The notes under the pieces: model-generated | Seen by the model: only the letters and a program-made list of their open reading frames with translations | Told to the model about the DNA's origin: nothing | The model's database searches: none | Part shown: one piece after another, positions 7,307 to 32,843 of the stretch | Layout: each line of letters opens with the position of its first letter | How positions within the stretch are numbered: position 1 is the stretch's first letter | NCBI GenBank assembly: GCA_039795895.1 | Contig: JBDKKW010000002.1 | Coordinates: 7,347-71,346 of the forward strand | Direction of reading: 5' to 3' | DNA from: Candidatus Parcubacteria bacterium | GTDB taxonomy: Bacteria > Patescibacteriota > Minisyncoccia > Phycocordibacterales > JBAYGS01 | DNA: 64,000 nt | Translations under genes and position numbers: made by a program

Positions 7307-8119
7307 CTAGTGTACCGGTCCGAGATCAACCTCAACAAAACGAGTCTCGGCGAGATTGATCGGACTCTTAAACAAAATTCGCTGGAAAGAATCGTTGGCA
7401 CTCACCACAATCGTCTCGACAACACCGACCGGACGCTTATCGAGCTCAGGAAAGACAACCGTGTCTCCTGATACTACATCGAGTTCGCGAGGGATTCGAG
7501 CATCAAAATTGCCCGCGCCAAGACCAGTCGCGAGCGCAGAAATTCGTGTCTTACCGATAATCACCTGATGCTCTTCGCCTGGTGATGAGAACAACTTCAC
7601 CTTCGACCACGTCGGAGCTACTTCCATAATCGATCCCACTACAGTCCCTTGCACTGACACCTGAGCACCCAAGATTACTCCAAGATTTTTCCCCGCATCA
7701 ATGACTAGTGTGTCGTACGGAGTCTGTGTTGGATTATTGAGAACCGCAGTGAGTAGTGCTCGCTTAAAGGGTGCCCGGCCAAGCATCTCCTTGAGACTGG
7801 CATTTTCATCTCGCAACACACTCAATTGCAAAGCATCTTGATACGAAGCATCTATGCGCGATTGCAATGCTTTTTGATTCTCAATGAGACTTTCTTTGGT
7901 GTGTACCAATGACACAAGGGATGCGAATTTTTCACTGACTGACTGCGATACTCCCCACAGTGGCGCACCCATAAAGACGAGCATTCGTGAAATCGGATTG
8001 AATCCAAACAATCGCACAACAAGCAAGACAAGCAACGCACCCACACCAACTACAAGCAGTGTTCGATTTCCCGAATCTTTTTGTCGTTTAGTTTTTAAGA
8101 GGTAAATCATGATCGTCAT
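7307..8119 (-). CDS. mreC: Rod shape-determining protein MreC
   Basis: 270 aa with an N-terminal transmembrane segment, a coiled-coil (LQSRIDASYQDALQLSVLRDENASLKEML) and a beta-rich C-terminus. It overlaps mreB by 32 nt. Confidence 0.82.
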   Translation of the reverse strand: MTIMIYLLKTKRQKDSGNRTLLVVGVGALLVLLVVRLFGFNPISRMLVFMGAPLWGVSQSVSEKFASLVSLVHTKESLIENQKALQSRIDASYQDALQLSVLRDENASLKEMLGRAPFKRALLTAVLNNPTQTPYDTLVIDAGKNLGVILGAQVSVQGTVVGSIMEVAPTWSKVKLFSSPGEEHQVIIGKTRISALATGLGAGNFDARIPRELDVVSGDTVVFPELDKRPVGVVETIVVSANDSFQRILFKSPINLAETRFVEVDLGPVH

Positions 8120-9188
8120 CCTCGATTAAGACTTCACGGAACGTACGCAAATCTTCAAGAATAATACCTGTCCCTCGGGCAATCGCCGTTAGCGGATCAT
8201 CAGCGACATGCACGGGAATCTTCAAAAATTCTTGAAGGAGCGCATCAAGACCCTTGATCAAAGCTCCCCCACCCACCATATAAATACCTCTTTGCATCAC
8301 ATCGGCGAGGATTTCAGGTGGGGTGGTTTCGAGCACCTGCTTGACCGACTCGACGAGGGTATCGATCGACTGTGCCATCGCTTCTCGAATATCAGCATCA
8401 GTGATCACCACTTCGCGAGGAAGCCCGGTCACGAGGTCTCGTCCACGAATCGTCATCTCGAGTGCTGGTCGATCAGGCATCACCACACCGATAGCAATTT
8501 TGACCTCCTCGGCAGTCTTTTCACCAATCAAAATTTTAAACTCACTGCGGATGTACGAGATGATGTCGTTGTTGAGCTTGTCACCGGCGATTTTGAGATT
8601 TTTTGAACGAACAATACCGCCAAGTGAGATCACTGCGATATCAGTCGTCCCGCCACCAATATCAATCACCATATTTCCCACCGGCTCCATCACCGGCAGA
8701 CGAATACCGATCGCTCCCGCCATTGGTTGCTCCACCACAAACACCTCTCGTGCGCCGGCATTACGAGTGGCATCGCGTACTGCGCGAGTCTCTACGTTGG
8801 TCACACCAGATGGCACACCCACCACTACGCGCGGACCAAACATCTTTTTGTGTTCACGCTGGCACTTGTTCATCAAATACAAAATCATCTCTTCGGTCAC
8901 CTCGAAATCAGAAATCACTCCGTCGACAAGTGGTCGTACCGCCGTGATGTGTGCAGGTGTGCGTCCGAGCATTTGCTTGGCTTCCTTTCCTACTGCCACC
9001 ACTCGACCGGTCTTGCCATTCACCGCCACCACCGACGGCTCATTGATCACAATCCCCTTGCCACGCAAATACAAGAGCGTATTCGCCGTACCCAAATCAA
9101 TCCCAATATCATGACTAAGTAGGGAGTATAATTTTTCGAGATGTTTTTGTATCATAAAAGTATTAAGCAGTATTTTCTGAATCCTCAC
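8088..9188 (-). CDS. mreB: Rod shape-determining protein MreB (actin-like ATPase)
   Basis: IGIDLGTANTLLY ... NEPSVVAV ... DIGGGTTDIAVIS actin-fold motifs; 366 aa. Confidence 0.9.
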   Translation of the reverse strand: MRIQKILLNTFMIQKHLEKLYSLLSHDIGIDLGTANTLLYLRGKGIVINEPSVVAVNGKTGRVVAVGKEAKQMLGRTPAHITAVRPLVDGVISDFEVTEEMILYLMNKCQREHKKMFGPRVVVGVPSGVTNVETRAVRDATRNAGAREVFVVEQPMAGAIGIRLPVMEPVGNMVIDIGGGTTDIAVISLGGIVRSKNLKIAGDKLNNDIISYIRSEFKILIGEKTAEEVKIAIGVVMPDRPALEMTIRGRDLVTGLPREVVITDADIREAMAQSIDTLVESVKQVLETTPPEILADVMQRGIYMVGGGALIKGLDALLQEFLKIPVHVADDPLTAIARGTGIILEDLRTFREVLIEDDDHDLPLKN

Positions 9189-16900: not shown

Positions 16901-16997
16901 AAGAACAATCCCCCTTTCTGTCACAGCGTGACCTGGTTGGTTTCTGGCACTACTGTATAGGTTTTGGAGAGGAATGCAAGGAAAAAATTCAATCGGG

Positions 16998-17070
16998 TGG
17001 ACCATACCGGATTCGAACCGGTTGCCTCTTCCATGCCATGGAAGCGCTCTACCAAGTGAGCTAATGGCCC
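16998..17070 (-). tRNA. tRNA-Ala (anticodon GGC)
   Basis: Cloverleaf reconstructed by hand: acceptor GGGCCAT/ATGGTCC with the G3:U70 Ala identity pair, anticodon loop ATGGCAT, and T-arm GGTTCGAATCC. CCA is not encoded. Confidence 0.85.
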
Positions 17071-17150: not shown

Positions 17151-17223
17151 GGGCCCTTAGCTCATCTGGTAGAGCACCTCATTTGCAATGAGGGGGTGGC
17201 AGGTTCGAGTCCTGTAGGGTCCA
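17151..17223 (+). tRNA. tRNA-Ala (anticodon TGC)
   Basis: GGGCCCTTAGCTCATCTGGTAGAGCACCTCATTTGCAATGAGG...GGTTCGAGTCC...AGGGTCCA; G3:U70 present; divergent from the GGC isoacceptor 80 nt away. Confidence 0.85.
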
Positions 17224-17231
17224 CCGAACAG

Positions 17232-17490: not shown

Positions 17491-18453
17491 CTAAAGACCT
17501 GAAATTTCCCGGAGTTTACTCCATTCCTCGAATAGGCTTCTTTTGTCTGGCCGTAGTCCCACATAATGACTTATCTGTCCCGACACTCTATCAACAACCT
17601 GTCCAAGTGTAAGATTTGGGTAATGCTGTCTCCTAAAATCCCTAATACCGATAATTCCACAGATGTATACCGCCTTTTCTACCTCTTCTCTTTTTTGCTT
17701 GATGAGATTTGGCTTTTTATTTACGACAGTCTTTGTCACCGTCTGCCTTTCTGATTGATTGACGGGATTGTCTTCATCTTTATGCACAGTAAAACCATCT
17801 CTTTCAAAGAGTTTCTTTATGTAGTTACAGATTGAAGCATTGATGGTGCTATTACCAGACACAGTAAGATCGTCGATCCAAAAACTATGTTTGAATCCAA
17901 ACTTTTTCAAGAATCCCTGGAGCCTTCTGTCCGTTTTGCCCAAAACTAAAACTGAAACGAGTGGACTTGTTTTGAAACCTTGTGGCAAGTGACCTTCTGC
18001 AGTGACCAAATCTCTGATCATGTTCGCAACATCAGGCTGACATCCCAGATCTCGGAAAGTAAAGAATACTTTCTCTGGTTTTACAGAGGGAAAGAATCTC
18101 TTTATGTCGAATACGGCAATGTTCTTTTTATTACTATGGATTTGTGCGTGAGAAGACAGGGAACGACCTTTTATCGCACCTTGAAACTGAACCGGAATGT
18201 CGAGCCGATATAATAAATTCTTGAGAAGTTTAGCGTGTATAGCCTCAAGTTCCGGACTTGCTTGATAGAAGTCTCTCGACTTTCCTTTTTTATCCTGCCA
18301 TGTTCGCTTGGTGTAATGTTTATCTTTTTCTTTTAGTATTGCTTCGATAACGTCCAAAGGAACCCCGATCTGGTGGGCTAATTCTTTTGTTCTATTTATC
18401 TTCAATGATTCAAGCGTTTTTTTCATCAGCAAGAAGCATTGTTTCAAACTCAC
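17491..18453 (-). CDS. Reverse transcriptase, retron-type
   Basis: 320 aa. RT motifs run in the expected order: FDIKRFFPSV (motif 2/A), LPQGFKTSPLVS (QGxxxSP), and FWIDDLTVS (YxDD-like, close to the retron Ec86 YADDLTLS). The retron-specific block KGRSLSSHAQIH matches GxSxxxNAxxH, and a VTK(TVVN) stretch sits where the retron VTG motif lies. Confidence 0.85.
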   Translation of the reverse strand: MSLKQCFLLMKKTLESLKINRTKELAHQIGVPLDVIEAILKEKDKHYTKRTWQDKKGKSRDFYQASPELEAIHAKLLKNLLYRLDIPVQFQGAIKGRSLSSHAQIHSNKKNIAVFDIKRFFPSVKPEKVFFTFRDLGCQPDVANMIRDLVTAEGHLPQGFKTSPLVSVLVLGKTDRRLQGFLKKFGFKHSFWIDDLTVSGNSTINASICNYIKKLFERDGFTVHKDEDNPVNQSERQTVTKTVVNKKPNLIKQKREEVEKAVYICGIIGIRDFRRQHYPNLTLGQVVDRVSGQISHYVGLRPDKRSLFEEWSKLREISGL

Positions 18454-18736
18454 TCACAATATCATTCAACTTCTTGCGAACAATTTTGTCGTTTCTAGTT
18501 TTTCCATGAGGAATAAGAATATCTTTTGCCAAAATTAGGATAGGAAAATCGTACTCCTTTGATATTTTCTTGAGAAGAGGCATTCCTGGTTTCTTTGCTC
18601 CATTCTCAATAAGAGAAATGTAGTTAGCAGAAACACCAAGACTCTTCGCAATTTGTTCTTGCGACAAGCCTTGTTTAATTCTTATTTTTTTAATTGTGTT
18701 TCCGATTTCTTTCATAAACGTCTTGATAACTGGCAC
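18410..18736 (-). CDS. XRE-family helix-turn-helix protein, translationally coupled to the RT
   Basis: QGLSQEQIAKSLGVSANYISLIENG helix-turn-helix. The 3' end overlaps the RT start by 44 nt. Confidence 0.8.
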   Translation of the reverse strand: MPVIKTFMKEIGNTIKKIRIKQGLSQEQIAKSLGVSANYISLIENGAKKPGMPLLKKISKEYDFPILILAKDILIPHGKTRNDKIVRKKLNDIVSEFETMLLADEKNA

Positions 18737-26875: not shown

Positions 26876-27889
26876 TTACCTTTTCGTGATGATGCTCTTT
26901 TTATAGGTATCGAGATGATCCAGTGCCACTCCCGTCCCCTTCACCACACAAAACAGCGCATCCTCCGCCAAAATCGCTTTTACTCCAGTACGTCGATAGA
27001 CAAGCTCCGGCAAATTGCGAAGCATAGAAGATCCGCCTGTCATAATAATTCCCTTATCAATAATATCCGCCGCGAGCTCGGGTGGAGTCTCTTGCAACAC
27101 ATCTTTGATTGCCTTAATCATATCGCGAAGCTCACGCGCAATCGCCTTCACGATTTCGTTGGTTTTAATTTCCGCGGTACGAGGCAGTCCCGAGAGAAAA
27201 TCTCGCCCCTTGATCACCATAGTCAACTCTTCATCGAGTGGTACCGCTGAGCCAACCTTAATTTTAATTTCTTCTGCTGTCTGATCACCAATCGCAAGGT
27301 TGAATGTCTTTTTAATATAGTCCGCAATCGCCGCATCAATACGATTACCCGCACACTTCACCGAAGTCGAAGCCACAATCCCGCCGAGCGAGATCACCGC
27401 CACATCGGTCGTCCCTCCTCCGATGTCTACCACCATGTGACCAATCGGCTCGTAAATCGGGATACCCGCACCAATTGCAGCCAAAATTGGCTCCTTCACC
27501 ACGTAGGCATTTTTTGCCCCCGCACGCATTGCTGCTTCGATCACCGCGCGACGCTCAGTCGAAGTCACTCCCGCTGGCACCGACACCATCACGTCTGGTT
27601 TAAAAATATTCCATCGTCCGAGTGCTTTGCCGATAAAATAGCGGAGCATTGCTTCGGTCACGCGATAATCGGCAATCACCCCATCTTTCATCGGTCGGTA
27701 GGCAATAATACTCTCGGGTGTTTTACCAATCATATTTTTGGCATCCACTCCCACCGCCAAAATTTTATTATCCTGCTCAGAGACCGCCACCACCGATGGC
27801 TCGTTGAGCACAATCCCCTTGCCCGGCAAAAAGACCAGCGTATTCGCCGTACCTAAATCAATCCCCAATCGTTTTGAGAACATTCCCAT
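26876..27889 (-). CDS. MreB-like actin homolog (second paralog)
   Basis: LGIDLGTANTLVFLPGKGIVLNEPSVVAV ... DIGGGTTDVAVIS; 337 aa; stand-alone, with no adjacent mreCD. Confidence 0.85.
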   Translation of the reverse strand: MGMFSKRLGIDLGTANTLVFLPGKGIVLNEPSVVAVSEQDNKILAVGVDAKNMIGKTPESIIAYRPMKDGVIADYRVTEAMLRYFIGKALGRWNIFKPDVMVSVPAGVTSTERRAVIEAAMRAGAKNAYVVKEPILAAIGAGIPIYEPIGHMVVDIGGGTTDVAVISLGGIVASTSVKCAGNRIDAAIADYIKKTFNLAIGDQTAEEIKIKVGSAVPLDEELTMVIKGRDFLSGLPRTAEIKTNEIVKAIARELRDMIKAIKDVLQETPPELAADIIDKGIIMTGGSSMLRNLPELVYRRTGVKAILAEDALFCVVKGTGVALDHLDTYKKSIITKR

Positions 27890-27929: not shown

Positions 27930-28499
27930 TTGACAAATAGTCAGCAAAGTATAGTGTGTAAAGTAGAAAAGTTGTTTGAGAAAGATGTACGTATGAAAAG
28001 AAAACCGAAAGTTAGATCTCACCCAAGGTCCTATCCCCCAGAAACAAAAATGGGAGATATGCCAATCTGGTGTCACCACCATTGTTACAAAATGTCGATC
28101 AAAGGAATCGGTACTTGGGGGAAATCAGTGATCCTCGCAGGAAGTGCCGCGGAGCTACATATCGCCTATGAACCAAACATCGCTCGCGCAGATGCTCCTT
28201 GGACATTGATCTGGGAAATCAGACACTCGCCCAAGGAAAAAGTGACCGGAACAGTCATCTTCACAACCGAAGACGTGCGACAGGCTTTTGGGCTGACCGA
28301 CAATCGTCCCGATGAAGAGAACTGGCTTCTCGAAAGGTTTGGTGGACAAGTGGCAAGCCAAGGTCACTATATCCGCTATGGACCATACCTCAATATCCCT
28401 GCCCCCGGGACTGGTCATGATGGGGATCCGAACATCTCAATCAAGATTGACCAGAAAATCAGAAGAGCTGTTGCTCGACTAATTACTGGCAAACTTTGA
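27930..28499 (+). CDS. Hypothetical protein
   Basis: 189-aa ORF. The start may be internal (MKRKPKV or MGDMPIW). A terminator follows. Confidence 0.45.
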   Translation: MTNSQQSIVCKVEKLFEKDVRMKRKPKVRSHPRSYPPETKMGDMPIWCHHHCYKMSIKGIGTWGKSVILAGSAAELHIAYEPNIARADAPWTLIWEIRHSPKEKVTGTVIFTTEDVRQAFGLTDNRPDEENWLLERFGGQVASQGHYIRYGPYLNIPAPGTGHDGDPNISIKIDQKIRRAVARLITGKL

Positions 28500-28508
28500 A
28501 CACTCGCC

Positions 28509-28553
28509 CGCCCTGCACCTTTTACAAAAGGTGCAGGGCGCTTTTTTCTTTTT
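28509..28553 (+). terminator. Rho-independent terminator
   Basis: cgccctgcaccttttacaaaaggtgcagggcg followed by cttttttctttttt. Confidence 0.7.
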
Positions 28554-28656
28554 TAGAAATTAGGAATTAGGTATTAAAAATTACTTAGTTATCCCCAACA
28601 AACTGTTTTAATTATCACATATATGCTATATTTATACTATTATAAAATAAAAGGTA

Positions 28657-30192
28657 TTGAGTATGGCGTCGCAATCACACTTCGATAAGAAATTAAAAAT
28701 GGTCGGATCTTTAATCACCAAACTCCGCGAAGAGCGAGGTCTCACCCAGGAGGCACTAGCTGAAAAGATCGGCACCACCCAAAGTGGCCTGGCCCGTATC
28801 GAGTCTGGTGAACAAAACATCACAACAGAGACTCTTGCTAAAATTTCTGGTGCGCTTGAGAAAAATATTATCGAAGTATCAAAGGGCGGACTCAATATCG
28901 AAATTGAAGGTGGACATACTCTCTCAGGGACCATCGAGACCAAAACTTCCAAGAACGCCGCTGTGGGACTGCTCTGTGCTTCCCTGCTCAACCGCAACAC
29001 CACCCTCCTCAAACAAGTCCCAAGAATCGAAGAGGTAAATCGTATCATCGAAGTGCTCGAGAGTATTGGGGTCACTGTGACCTGGATTGGCAACGATCTT
29101 GAAATCAAACCACCAAAGACCTTCTCACTCGACAAGCTCAATATCGAATCTGCTATCAAAACTCGCAGTGTGATTATGCTCATCGGTCCACTGATCCACC
29201 ACTTAAAAAACTTTGCGATCCCCTACGCGGGAGGTTGTCGCTTGGGCTCTCGCACTATCAACCCGCACTTTTTTGCTCTCGAGAAACTTGGCCTGAAAAT
29301 TAAAACGGCATCAAAACAGTACGAGATATCGACCAAGAAATTAAAGGCGAACTATATTGTCCTCTACGAATCCGGCGACACCGTGACTGAAAATGTATTA
29401 ATGGCTTCAGCACTGATCCCTGGAAAAACAACTATCCGCTTTGCTTCGGCAAATTATCAGGTGCAAGATGTGTGCTTCTTCCTCGAAAGTCTCGGGGTGA
29501 AGATTGAGGGTATCGGTACCACCACCCTCGTCGTGCACGGTGTAGAAAATATTGATCGACCTATCACACATTTCTTGAGCGAAGATCCGATCGACTCAAT
29601 GTTTTTCATTGCTACCGCCATCCTCACCAAGTCGAGCCTCACCATCACTCGCTGTCCCATCGACTTTTTAGAAATTGAACTCTTGAAGCTCGAAAAAATG
29701 GGATTCAAATACAAAATCCTTAAGCGATACAAGTCGCGAAATGGTCAGACCAATCTCGTCGATATAAAAACATTCCCATCGACACTCAAGGCTCTTCAAG
29801 ACAAGATTGAATCTCGGCCGTATCCCGGGCTCAACATCGACAACCTCCCCTTCTTTGCCGTGATTGCCACGCAAGCGAAAGGTCAAACCTTGATCCACGA
29901 TTGGGTCTATGAAGAACGCGCCATCTACTACAAGGAGCTCGATAAGTTGCGCGCAGATACTATTCTTGCCGACCCACATCGACTCTATGTGAACGGTCCA
30001 ACCGAGCTCAAAGGTGCTGAAGTGGTCTCGCCTCCAGCGCTCCGTCCCGCAGCCATCATCCTCATCGGCATGCTCGGCGCCACAGGCAAATCTATCCTCC
30101 GCAATATCTATAGTATCAATCGTGGCTACGAAGATATTATCAAGCGACTACAGAGTTTGGGGGCGAAGATTAAGGTACTCCGAGATTTTTAA
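28657..30192 (+). CDS. murA: UDP-N-acetylglucosamine 1-carboxyvinyltransferase with N-terminal XRE-type helix-turn-helix extension
   Basis: Residues about 77-511 align with MurA (KNAAVGLLCASLL...; catalytic Cys loop AGGCRLGSR; C-terminal INRGYEDIIKRLQSLGAKIKVL). Residues about 15-70 form a helix-turn-helix (LREERGLTQEALAEKIGTTQSGLARIESGEQNITTETLAKISGAL) with no in-frame start codon between the two parts. Confidence 0.85.
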   Translation: MSMASQSHFDKKLKMVGSLITKLREERGLTQEALAEKIGTTQSGLARIESGEQNITTETLAKISGALEKNIIEVSKGGLNIEIEGGHTLSGTIETKTSKNAAVGLLCASLLNRNTTLLKQVPRIEEVNRIIEVLESIGVTVTWIGNDLEIKPPKTFSLDKLNIESAIKTRSVIMLIGPLIHHLKNFAIPYAGGCRLGSRTINPHFFALEKLGLKIKTASKQYEISTKKLKANYIVLYESGDTVTENVLMASALIPGKTTIRFASANYQVQDVCFFLESLGVKIEGIGTTTLVVHGVENIDRPITHFLSEDPIDSMFFIATAILTKSSLTITRCPIDFLEIELLKLEKMGFKYKILKRYKSRNGQTNLVDIKTFPSTLKALQDKIESRPYPGLNIDNLPFFAVIATQAKGQTLIHDWVYEERAIYYKELDKLRADTILADPHRLYVNGPTELKGAEVVSPPALRPAAIILIGMLGATGKSILRNIYSINRGYEDIIKRLQSLGAKIKVLRDF

Positions 30193-30340: not shown

Positions 30341-30811
30341 ATGTCCCGTCAACATTTTCGGTCATGGGAAGAAATATGGAAAATTATCGACCCAAACAGC
30401 CTCATCGGCACTACTGTCGAGGTGTGGTACACACCTCCCGAAGCAATGTCGTTTACCGCAGACGAAAAAGCAGAAGCTGAACTTACTGGATACTTTCGTT
30501 TCTGCATAATTGGAGTGCGTGTCGGCTCAGAGCACAATCCATTTGTAACGGGACAATGGTACGAGTATGACAAGACAAGTAATGCATGGAAAGCCTCGGG
30601 AGCCGAGATAGATTGTATGCATGTCAAAGAAAGAGGGGGTCTTTCAAGAATCACTGTATCAGATGGAAAAATTACAAGTGTACACCCCAAACTAAACATC
30701 CATGTGATATTTCACCCCAGAGAAAAACCAGTGCCCTTAAATCATGGTCGGGCAATAACGGTGGCCGAAATATTCGAACTTTTTCAAAAGAGGGCTGCCG
30801 CAAGAAATTAG
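30341..30811 (+). CDS. Hypothetical protein
   Basis: 156 aa from MSRQHF. The ORF-track upstream extension overlaps murA and the terminator. Confidence 0.5.
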   Translation: MSRQHFRSWEEIWKIIDPNSLIGTTVEVWYTPPEAMSFTADEKAEAELTGYFRFCIIGVRVGSEHNPFVTGQWYEYDKTSNAWKASGAEIDCMHVKERGGLSRITVSDGKITSVHPKLNIHVIFHPREKPVPLNHGRAITVAEIFELFQKRAAARN

Positions 30812-30935: not shown

Positions 30936-32843
30936 ATGAAAGTCATTCGCGTCATCCCCATTGCCAAAGGCATCGGTCGCGAAACCCTCTCGTATTTCAC
31001 CGGTGCAGACGTGACCGTCGGCAACATCGTCAAAGTCCCACTCCGAAATCGGATTATTTCTGGACTGATAGTAGCAGTAGAAAATGCCGAGGATCTCAAG
31101 GCCAATCTCAAAACGCTCGACTACGAAATCCGTCGTGTCGAAAAAGTCCACGCCGAAGCAGGCCTCCCCGAAAGCTTCATCACCACTTGTGCCAAGATTG
31201 CAGAGATTTCCTACACCACCACCGGAAGTATTCTGTCGGCAATGACCCCGAATTTTCTCTTTGATGGTACCGTCATCAAAAAACTCTCCCGCATTCACGA
31301 GATGAAAGTGGCTCCACACGTCATCTCCGAGAAATTATCGATTCAAGCCGACGACGAAGAACGCTTCTCACACTACAAGAGCCTCATCCGAGAAGATTTC
31401 GCCAAAAAGCGCTCAGTCTTTCTCTGCCTCCCATCAATTCAAGAAATCGAGACCGTCAAGGAAGCGCTCGAAAAGGGCATCGAGCCGTACACTTATGTAT
31501 TGACCAGCCAGATCGAAGCCAAAGAACTCAAAAAGATTTGGAAAGACATTGCTCAAAATCCACACTCACTCCTCATCATCGGCACTCCACACTTTCTCCC
31601 TGTCTTTCGAGATGATATCGGGACTATTATTATCGAGCGCGAAAATGCCAAAGGCTACTATCTCCGCGAGCGACCATACAGCGACACTCGACTCTTCACT
31701 GAGCTTTTTGCGGAAAGCTTGGGTGCGAGATTGATCGTCGGCGACGCACTACTCCGCACCGAGACTATCTGGCGTACCAAATCAGGAGATCTTCACGAAT
31801 ACGCACCCCTCAAATTTCGTTCACTTTCGACTGCGGTCGTCAGCAAAATCGATATGCGAGTGTACAGCGAAGCGGGAGGCAGAAAGTTTAGCCTCCTGTC
31901 AGATGAAGCCCATCATCTCATTTTAGAAAACAAACCAAAAAGTGAACACTGCTTCATCTTCTGTGCTCGACGAGGTCTCTCACCATCGACCGTTTGTAGC
32001 GACTGCGGAACGACCGTCGCCTGCTCGACCTGTGGCGCCCCGACCGTCCTCCATGGCATGACCGGCAAAGATGTCGACACCAACAATTTCTTCATGTGTC
32101 ACCGCTGTGGCGAAAAAAGGTCCGCTCGAGAAGTCTGTGTGCACTGTGGTGGCTGGAGATTGAAAGCTCTCGGGGTCGGCATCGACAGCGTTGAAGTCGA
32201 AATCAAACGACTCCATCCTGAAAGCACCGTCTTTATTCTCGACAAAGATCGCATCAAGACCCACGAAAAAGCCAAAGAGATTGTCCGAAAGTTTGGAGAG
32301 ACTCCGGGAAGTATCTTGCTCGGCACCGAAATGGCGCTCCCCTATCTCACCTTCAAAATCCAATCGACCATCATCGCCTCACTCGACTCATTTTTTTCTA
32401 TTCCCGATTTTCGAATTGGCGAGCGAATTATGCAAATCTTGATCAAGCTCCGCAGTATCACCACCGAGCAATTCCTCCTCCAAACCAGAAACCCCGACGC
32501 CAAGCTCCTCGAGTACGGCCTCAAAGGCAACCTGCTTGATTTTTATAAAGATGAAATCACTGAGCGTGAACAATTCCTCTATCCACCGTTTAAAACTATT
32601 ATCAAGCTAACTCTCGAGGGCACCAAGGACCGCGTGAGTGGACTCATCGCCGAAGCAAAACAAAAATTCGCCTCTTTTACTCCCGACGTCTTCCCGGCTT
32701 TCCTCTCCATGCGCAAAGGACAGGTGTCGATGAATATGTTGATCAAGACTGATCCCAAAAAGTCAGATCCAGCACTCAATGAGAAGATTAATTCGCTGAC
32801 GCAGGAGTGGAGCGTGAGCGTGAACCCAGAAAGTTTGCTGTAG
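30936..32843 (+). CDS. priA: Primosomal protein N' (PriA) homolog with degenerate helicase motifs
   Basis: PriA-like N-terminus (MKVIRVIPIAKGIGRETLSYF...VKVPLRNRIISGLI) and Cys-rich region (CSDCGTTVACSTCGAPTVLHG...CHRCGEKRSAREVCVHCGG). Where the Walker A motif should be the sequence reads KRSVFLCLPS, and DEEH is replaced by IIIERENAKGYY. Confidence 0.78.
   Translation: MKVIRVIPIAKGIGRETLSYFTGADVTVGNIVKVPLRNRIISGLIVAVENAEDLKANLKTLDYEIRRVEKVHAEAGLPESFITTCAKIAEISYTTTGSILSAMTPNFLFDGTVIKKLSRIHEMKVAPHVISEKLSIQADDEERFSHYKSLIREDFAKKRSVFLCLPSIQEIETVKEALEKGIEPYTYVLTSQIEAKELKKIWKDIAQNPHSLLIIGTPHFLPVFRDDIGTIIIERENAKGYYLRERPYSDTRLFTELFAESLGARLIVGDALLRTETIWRTKSGDLHEYAPLKFRSLSTAVVSKIDMRVYSEAGGRKFSLLSDEAHHLILENKPKSEHCFIFCARRGLSPSTVCSDCGTTVACSTCGAPTVLHGMTGKDVDTNNFFMCHRCGEKRSAREVCVHCGGWRLKALGVGIDSVEVEIKRLHPESTVFILDKDRIKTHEKAKEIVRKFGETPGSILLGTEMALPYLTFKIQSTIIASLDSFFSIPDFRIGERIMQILIKLRSITTEQFLLQTRNPDAKLLEYGLKGNLLDFYKDEITEREQFLYPPFKTIIKLTLEGTKDRVSGLIAEAKQKFASFTPDVFPAFLSMRKGQVSMNMLIKTDPKKSDPALNEKINSLTQEWSVSVNPESLL

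Follow-up and report, generated by a model that had tools for sequence, protein, structure and literature searches.

MurA catalyzes the first committed step of peptidoglycan synthesis and is the target of fosfomycin. The known control of MurA is post-translational, through feedback by UDP-N-acetylmuramic acid (UDP-MurNAc) and, in Firmicutes, through ClpCP/ReoM proteolysis. In enterobacteria, NadR combines a cro/C1-type helix-turn-helix (HTH) domain with nicotinamide mononucleotide (NMN) adenylyltransferase and ribosylnicotinamide kinase, and represses genes of its own pathway. RbkR of archaea is a riboflavin kinase fused to a DNA-binding domain, and its role was deduced from conserved palindromes upstream of pathway genes (PMC5397151). 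Here, we analyzed 64 kb of contig JBDKKW010000002.1 from a Candidatus Parcubacteria bacterium (this whole stretch is hereafter termed the window), in which a single gene encodes a MurA preceded by an N-terminal XRE-type HTH domain (HTH-MurA). No paper describing such a fusion emerged from full-text literature searches, and database records label the fusion only as 'MurA' or 'helix-turn-helix domain-containing protein'. On the basis of comparative sequence analysis, we propose, with a probability of roughly 0.75, that HTH-MurA is bifunctional, acting as an enzyme and, by means of a domesticated antitoxin repressor and its operator, as a repressor at its own promoter.

We determined that translation of HTH-MurA likely starts at the ATG at position 28663, which gives the same length (509 amino acids) as that of the closest homologue (P0001, 96% identity). 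In-frame start-type codons were present at 28657 (TTG), 28663 (ATG) and 28699 (ATG), followed by none until a GTG at 28963 (codon 103), which falls past the essential lysine of the MurA SKN motif. An in-frame stop codon was located upstream at 28648, and none was found within the open reading frame (ORF) before 30190. The HTH is hence part of the product of any usable start codon, and MurA alone could not be translated from this ORF. The original prediction had stated that the HTH is joined in frame to MurA in a single gene, with no stop codon and no ATG, GTG or TTG between the HTH and the start of MurA; this proved exact upon codon inspection, and the fusion was conserved among homologues. 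These two observations ruled out the frameshift and two-gene readings. We regard the probability of an artefactual fusion, caused by a frameshift, a misassembly or the merging of two genes, as negligible, because independent assemblies with the same architecture number at least in the hundreds, complete genomes from cultured actinomycetes among them, and because a separate MurA would be left without any available start codon.

All of the 120 best homologues in a collection of 5.8 billion proteins carried both domains (487–538 amino acids, 68–96% identity). At least 597 species-representative genomes in GTDB encoded relatives, and 78 of the 80 best of these loci, from Patescibacteria/Paceibacteria, were fused; the 80 loci include Taylor-, Nomura-, Kaiser-, Harrison-, Lipton-, Kerfeld- and Doudnabacteria. 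The closest relative was found in a metagenome-assembled genome of Patescibacteria (96% identity). The architecture had been predicted to be unusual, which holds for bacteria generally, but it is the norm in a large clade of Patescibacteria and is also present in RefSeq in Nonomuraea. The mean column conservation was 0.73 in the HTH, 0.80 in MurA and 0.54 in the linker. By this measure, the HTH comes close to the enzyme part in conservation, and residues Q29, T38, Q40, S41, A44, R45, E47, G49, Q51 and N52 were invariant.

Pfam matched both an HTH_3 domain and an EPSP synthase fold in the same ORF. The HTH_3 match scored 55.6 bits against a cut-off of 23, which places the N-terminal part among the XRE domains, and EPSP_synthase (PF00275) was matched at amino acids 84–498 (E = 2e-42) over positions 2–417 of the 417 profile positions. 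The score for NF006873, an NCBIfam model of a MurA subfamily, was above the cut-off (327.8 versus 297 bits), and that for the equivalog model TIGR01072 was below it (318 versus 392.7 bits). The closest solved structures by sequence were MurA enzymes (E = 1e-52). The AlphaFold2 model (mean predicted local distance difference test score, pLDDT, of 86.8) consisted of a confident four-helix HTH (helices 2–24, 29–36, 40–47 and 55–65; pLDDT 81–89 over residues 11–50), a low-confidence linker at residues 70–75 and a MurA body. Target-normalised TM-scores against MurA crystal structures were 0.88–0.93 (Foldseek), and NikO and EPSP synthases fitted less well.

All nine catalytic residues were present in the window protein (K97, N98, R168, C192, R197, D393, R419, R461 and R487) and were invariant in the family alignment. 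Their equivalents in Escherichia coli MurA are, in the same order, K22, N23, R91, C115, R120, D305, R331, R371 and R397, according to what we take to be the E. coli reference sequence, the motifs of which match those in the 5UJS alignment. The position equivalent to E. coli D369 was Ala throughout the fusion family. Compared with canonical MurA (E. coli P0A749; PDB 1UAE and 5UJS), the window protein thus has the same fold (TM-score of approximately 0.9) and the nine catalytic residues in common, but it differs in approximately 80 extra N-terminal residues, which comprise the HTH and linker, and is only 26% identical to the E. coli enzyme. The fold and the catalytic residues indicate that the C-terminal 430 residues probably form a catalytically competent, Cys-type MurA.

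Among approximately 430 proteins collected, 258 fused relatives kept nine of nine catalytic and seven of seven HTH signature residues. A set of 12 more divergent fusions (32–43% identity to the window protein) had an intact HTH (7/7) and had lost two to nine of the nine catalytic residues, including the Cys loop; the sole converse case, in which the HTH was decayed and the catalytic residues were intact, was P0127. The intact HTH in proteins with a decayed active site shows that this domain is under selection independently of catalysis. These proteins suggest a capacity of the MurA fold to work as a sensor or scaffold, and they may be pseudo-enzymes acting as regulators. Together with the low TIGR01072 score and the Ala in place of D369, they could also be taken to mean that the window protein itself is mainly a transcription factor with a MurA-like sensor domain, and not a housekeeping enzyme. 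We consider this highly improbable, since the window protein and the 258 fused relatives have all nine catalytic residues, the NF006873 cut-off is exceeded and the fusion occupies the same syntenic slot as its HTH-less orthologues. Moreover, we noticed no other EPSP-synthase-like gene in the window, in which no dedicated scan for one was made.

By lining up the regions upstream of the fusion genes, we exposed an 18-bp palindrome with the family consensus TATAGCATATATGCTATA and the half-sites TATAGCATA and TATGCTATA. A total of 80 loci (79 GTDB loci and that of the window) were scored with the pattern TATNNCATATATGNNATA, for which a match at 13 or more of the 14 fixed positions, or a variant with a centre shorter by 2 nt, was required. 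The palindrome was found within 250 nt upstream of the fusion gene in 64 of these 80 loci, and no further match was present in the approximately 650 kb of their flanks. The candidate operator of the window was the single match in the 64 kb even when two mismatches were permitted (0.09 expected). The possibility that the palindrome is a general promoter motif of these genomes was ruled out by these counts. The right arm reads TGnTATAAT, an extended –10 element in which the hexamer was TATAAT in 25 loci, TATACT in 19 and TATATT in 12, and a TTGCA-like –35 element often abuts the left arm. The start codon was located 6–10 nt past the –10 hexamer in approximately 29 of 73 loci, which implies that these mRNAs are leaderless. 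Two copies of the palindrome, 15–1000 nt apart, were observed in L017, L065, L075, L079, L158 and L160; such double palindromes may be cooperative or dual operators.

At the window locus, the palindrome takes up the promoter spacer and runs into the extended –10 element, the first bases of which it includes. The predicted transcription start, at approximately 28639–28641, gives a leader of 22–24 nt with a Shine–Dalgarno sequence. A consensus promoter scanner that needs a –35 match proposed ATCACA-18-TATTAT (28614–28643), which likewise overlaps the palindrome. A protein positioned in this way over the core promoter would have the classical geometry of a repressor. A reading of the palindrome as an RNA hairpin was rejected, because the minimum free energy was 0.0 kcal/mol for the window site and only –5.3 kcal/mol for the perfect consensus, and because transcription is predicted to start only downstream of the site. 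Given a terminator upstream and a terminator-like hairpin downstream (Table 1), murA of the window is predicted to be monocistronic. A tandem heptamer (AATTAGG AATTAGG, 28558–28571) was also observed between the upstream terminator and the murA promoter, and strings similar to AATTCCTAA were seen upstream in L046 and L055 as well.

A search with an HTH-less orthologue as the query yielded 19 HTH-less orthologous proteins (431–450 amino acids) in approximately ten groups. In each group, the MurA domain was closer, or about as close, to a fused protein (77–93% identity) than to any other HTH-less group, and this nesting among fused lineages means that the HTH has been lost several times independently. 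The 12 HTH-less loci examined all keep the holB-mreB/murA-priA synteny. We compared the complementarity of the palindrome arms between the two kinds of loci, and found that at least 8 of 9 positions were complementary in none of the 12 HTH-less loci versus 52 of 77 fused loci (Fisher, P = 8e-6; Mann-Whitney, P = 7e-8; both uncorrected for phylogeny). The –10 arm was usually kept in HTH-less loci and the left arm was decayed; in one of them (L066), an insertion separates the two arms.

The operator sequence also varied with the recognition helix. Residue 39, which directly precedes the invariant Q40-S41 at the start of this helix, was T in loci with G..C at operator positions 5 and 14 (AGC...GCT class, 36 loci), and S in loci with T..A at these positions (ATC/CTC...GAT/GAG class, 19 loci). 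On a tree based on the MurA domain only, three parsimony switches between T and S were counted, of which two were accompanied by a switch in both operator arms and one by a switch in one arm. Thr27 of the 434 repressor, which aligns to residue 39, contacts bases; we treat this as a lead and not as a test.

The same association was observed outside Patescibacteria. P0122, a 50%-identity cluster representative from cultured Nonomuraea species, was 53% identical to the window protein over residues 10–508, and a PLSDB search located the fusion gene on an 11.85-Mb replicon of Nonomuraea gerenzanensis and on a 2.8-Mb replicon of Streptomyces sp. BHT-5-2. Each of these two loci contained exactly one ATCTCA-N4-TGAGAT, 13–16 nt before the start codon (ATCTCATATGTGAGAT and ATCTCATATCTGAGAT), for which the expectation in this G+C-rich DNA was 0.00–0.01 per 13.5 kb. 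The actinomycete fusions have S39, in agreement with an operator of the CTC/GAG class. The two loci have different upstream genes, and mreB is adjacent in neither. In Nonomuraea, a phage-integrase-family gene directly follows the fusion (7573–8481) and two further MurA-like places were found in the record; this fusion looks like a horizontally acquired, accessory extra copy of MurA. The actinomycete copies suggest horizontal transfer between Patescibacteria and actinomycetes.

These loci also bear on the role of mreB, which lies directly and divergently upstream of murA in most relatives. The possibility that the palindrome belongs to a bidirectional mreB/murA promoter was ruled out, because the left arm decays in HTH-less loci that retain a divergent mreB and because the site is kept in actinomycetes without mreB. 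The proximity of mreB could instead favor an HTH that serves as a protein-protein module, perhaps tethering MurA to MreB in a RodZ-like manner, with an unrelated palindrome; the XRE fold of RodZ is known to bind protein. A protein-interaction module had been the second role offered in the original prediction, and it found no support here. The 60 best matches of the HTH profile against the PDB were only DNA-binding XRE proteins (restriction-modification controller proteins, HipB, HigA, PezA, SinR, PlcR, and the 434 and P22 repressors) and MBF1/EDF1-type translation cofactors; RodZ was absent from them, and HTH_25 (PF13413) gave no match at E < 0.01. The canonical DNA-contact positions are invariant. 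Furthermore, an MreB tether would leave unexplained the decay of the left half-site upon HTH loss, the covariation of residue 39 with the operator and the retention of the operator in actinomycete loci without adjacent mreB. We accordingly consider it very unlikely.

We further analyzed 120 metagenome contigs containing the exact consensus 18-mer. A homologous HTH gene reading away from the palindrome was present within 800 nt in 77 contigs, and encoded a MurA fusion in 8 and a small HTH protein in 69. The gene for the small HTH protein was directly downstream of the palindrome in 43 of these 69 contigs and was the second gene in 26, where it follows a toxin of approximately 110 amino acids in the cases examined. 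The pairs tested in Pfam consisted of Gp49 (HigB/RelE-like) toxins and HTH_3 antitoxins. The toxin-antitoxin palindrome was located 8–45 nt upstream of the toxin gene, or extended exactly across the antitoxin ATG and the toxin stop codon, the TAG of which falls within it. Among L081–L200, many Gp49/HigB-HTH operons had the consensus palindrome, for example, in L099 (4475–5149), L142 (3829–4478) and L153 (620–1206).

These HigA-type antitoxins resemble the HTH of the fusion in having a homologous HTH_3 domain (hmmsearch, E = 1e-8 to 1e-20), the same 18-bp palindrome and a similar recognition helix, T-[TK]-Q-S-[AV]-I-[AS]-R-[IL]-E. They differ in being approximately 95–105 amino acids long, in being paired with Gp49 and in having an N-terminal extension before the HTH, whereas the fusion has 509 amino acids and no such extension. 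No toxin gene was adjacent to the fusion in the window, where the neighboring ORFs (27993–28499 and 30341–30811) had no Pfam match, and HTH-MurA is thus not itself a HigA. The HTH-operator pair thus already exists in toxin-antitoxin operons as an autoregulatory module, and MurA appears to have captured it. The probable source of both the HTH and the operator is a HigA-type antitoxin encoded in a Gp49/HigB-HTH operon.

The same operons raise the possibility that the palindrome upstream of murA is bound by another factor, such as a free HigA-like antitoxin, or is a mere promoter or bidirectional-promoter feature, with the fused HTH acting elsewhere or vestigial. Free antitoxins of this specificity exist, given that Gp49-HTH operons use the same palindrome, and the right arm is itself a –10 element, so that the palindrome could encode two opposed –10 elements. 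However, the left arm was lost in 12 of 12 HTH-less loci despite a divergent mreB, the operator variant follows residue 39 of the fused HTH, and the site persists in the actinomycete loci in two unrelated upstream contexts. In addition, the window encodes only one further XRE protein, and its recognition helix is different. This explanation therefore appears unlikely to us.

Autoregulation, which had been suggested as a function that the HTH might couple to cell-wall precursor synthesis, is favored because the palindrome overlaps the promoter of the gene itself, decays upon HTH loss and follows the gene into actinomycetes; the covariation with residue 39 agrees with it. The N-terminal HTH would bind the 18-bp palindrome, most likely as a dimer. 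A protein so bound would sit on the core promoter and exclude RNA polymerase, and repression would be expected rather than activation. A rising level of HTH-MurA would then fill the operator and lower transcription, which would amount to homeostatic control by negative autoregulation.

Several observations weigh against this proposal. MurA enzymes are usually described as monomers, whereas binding as a dimer is proposed here. The palindrome of the window is itself imperfect (7/9), and fewer than 8 of 9 arm positions were complementary in 25 of the 77 fused loci, 10 of which had fewer than 7. The statistical tests are uncorrected for phylogeny, and only two to three independent switches underlie the covariation. 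In the toxin-antitoxin operons, the palindrome is often at the toxin/antitoxin junction and not upstream of the operon, an odd place for an operator. Of the 120 contigs with an exact palindrome, 43 had no HTH within 800 nt, some of these contigs being truncated. Finally, the scan covered approximately 4 kb on each side in 80 genomes and one 64-kb window, and other genomic targets are possible.

We also entertain, more tentatively, the speculation that the MurA body acts as a ligand sensor. In that case, closure upon UDP-N-acetylglucosamine (UDP-GlcNAc)/phosphoenolpyruvate binding, or the 'dormant' complex with tightly bound UDP-MurNAc, might alter the geometry of the HTH dimer or its affinity for the operator, the module again being a domesticated toxin-antitoxin repressor and its operator. 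If so, the flux of cell-wall precursors would directly set the transcription of murA and perhaps also that of the divergent mreB, and a single protein would provide a feedback loop in organisms that have very few regulators. Relatives in which the HTH is intact and the active site dead might then be the end point of this path, that is, dedicated transcription factors that sense UDP-sugars.

If autoregulation by HTH-MurA is correct, a MurA with its own repressor domain and operator would constitute a new minimal way to keep the level of an enzyme constant. In Paceibacteria, a very large and uncultured clade that is poor in regulators, this would be the default. It would further provide a clear example of a housekeeping gene that has recruited the repressor-operator pair of a toxin-antitoxin system. 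The family holds natural intermediates of the kind expected between enzyme and regulator, namely, an intact enzyme with an HTH, a lost HTH, a decayed HTH and a decayed enzyme. The idea is directly testable, because cultured Nonomuraea and Streptomyces carry orthologues with the same operator.

Table 1. Features of the HTH-MurA locus (positions in the window unless a record is named) and related fusions
Feature	Position or record	Strand	Remarks
mreB	26876–27889	–	
Intrinsic terminator of upstream ORF	28509–28546	+	Strong; 14-bp G+C-rich stem, then T run
Candidate operator TATCACATATATGCTATA	28613–28630	no strand	Half-sites TATCACATA and TATGCTATA; 7/9 arm positions complementary
Extended –10 element TGCTATATT	28624–28632	+	TG, one base, TATATT; formed by right arm of palindrome; read from sequence
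Shine–Dalgarno-like AAAGG	28650–28654	+	8 nt before ATG 28663; read from sequence
HTH-MurA coding sequence	28663–30192	+	509 amino acids from ATG; 511 from alternative TTG 28657
XRE/Cro-C1-type HTH (Pfam HTH_3)	28720–28869	+	Amino acids 22–71; E = 5e-15
Recognition helix (TTQSGLARIES)	28774–28806	+	Residues 38–48; residue 39 T or S in family
Linker	28861–28893	+	Residues ~67–77, roughly 12 residues; least conserved stretch; residues 70–75 with pLDDT <50
MurA (UDP-GlcNAc 1-carboxyvinyltransferase) domain	28897–30177	+	EPSP-synthase fold; predicted from profile and structure matches
Cys192 codon	29236–29238	+	Equivalent to catalytic, fosfomycin-target Cys115 of E. coli MurA; loop GGCRLGSR
Terminator-like hairpin after stop codon	30237–30273	+	16-bp stem, weak T tract
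priA	30936–32843		
HTH-MurA of Nonomuraea gerenzanensis	L213, NZ_LT559118.1, 6001–7530		53% identical to window protein
HTH-MurA of Streptomyces sp. BHT-5-2 p1	L214		53% identical to window protein
HTH-intact, active-site-decayed fusions	P0130, P0132, P0141, P0157, P0160, P0223, P0264, P0323–P0327		

With regard to the other genes of the window, the two ORFs that flank the fusion (27930–28499 and 30341–30811) are both on the forward strand, and encode 168–189 amino acids (in the mreB/murA gap) and 156 amino acids (in the murA/priA gap). Both look like lineage-specific insertions, because nearly all relatives have directly divergent mreB and murA with priA close behind. A second XRE protein with an HTH_3 domain (108 amino acids, 18410–18736) has a different recognition helix (VSANYISLIENG). 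The gene encoding it lies within 17491–18736 on the reverse strand, overlaps the start of a gene for a 320-amino-acid reverse transcriptase (RVT_1, E = 2.5e-12) and adjoins, together with the latter, the tRNA-Ala genes at 16996–17070 (reverse strand) and 17151–17225 (forward strand). The pair may be a retron- or DRT-like defence module or a mobile module.

Lastly, we compared HTH-MurA with known proteins of similar design. RodZ shares an XRE-type HTH and a cell-wall/MreB context with HTH-MurA; however, no sequence-family match was found, and the present evidence favors DNA as the ligand. NadR is similar in having an XRE-type HTH N-terminal to a metabolic enzyme, but its enzyme fold and pathway are different and it regulates other NAD genes in response to NAD/ATP, whereas the only target seen for HTH-MurA is its own promoter. 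BirA (biotin protein ligase and repressor of the bio operon) and PutA (proline dehydrogenase and put repressor) likewise combine an enzyme and a repressor in one polypeptide, with an operator that overlaps the promoter; however, BirA has a winged HTH and PutA a ribbon-helix-helix in place of an XRE domain, and the binding of BirA is driven by a reaction intermediate. RbkR is similarly an enzyme-regulator fusion inferred by comparative genomics, but is archaeal, has another fold and controls a multi-gene regulon. In HTH-MurA, an enzyme and a DNA-binding domain are present in one polypeptide, and the palindrome overlaps the –10 element and spacer of the promoter of its own gene. These features place HTH-MurA functionally, as a putative member, with the enzyme-repressors or 'trigger enzymes' NadR, BirA, PutA and RbkR, although it belongs to none of those families.

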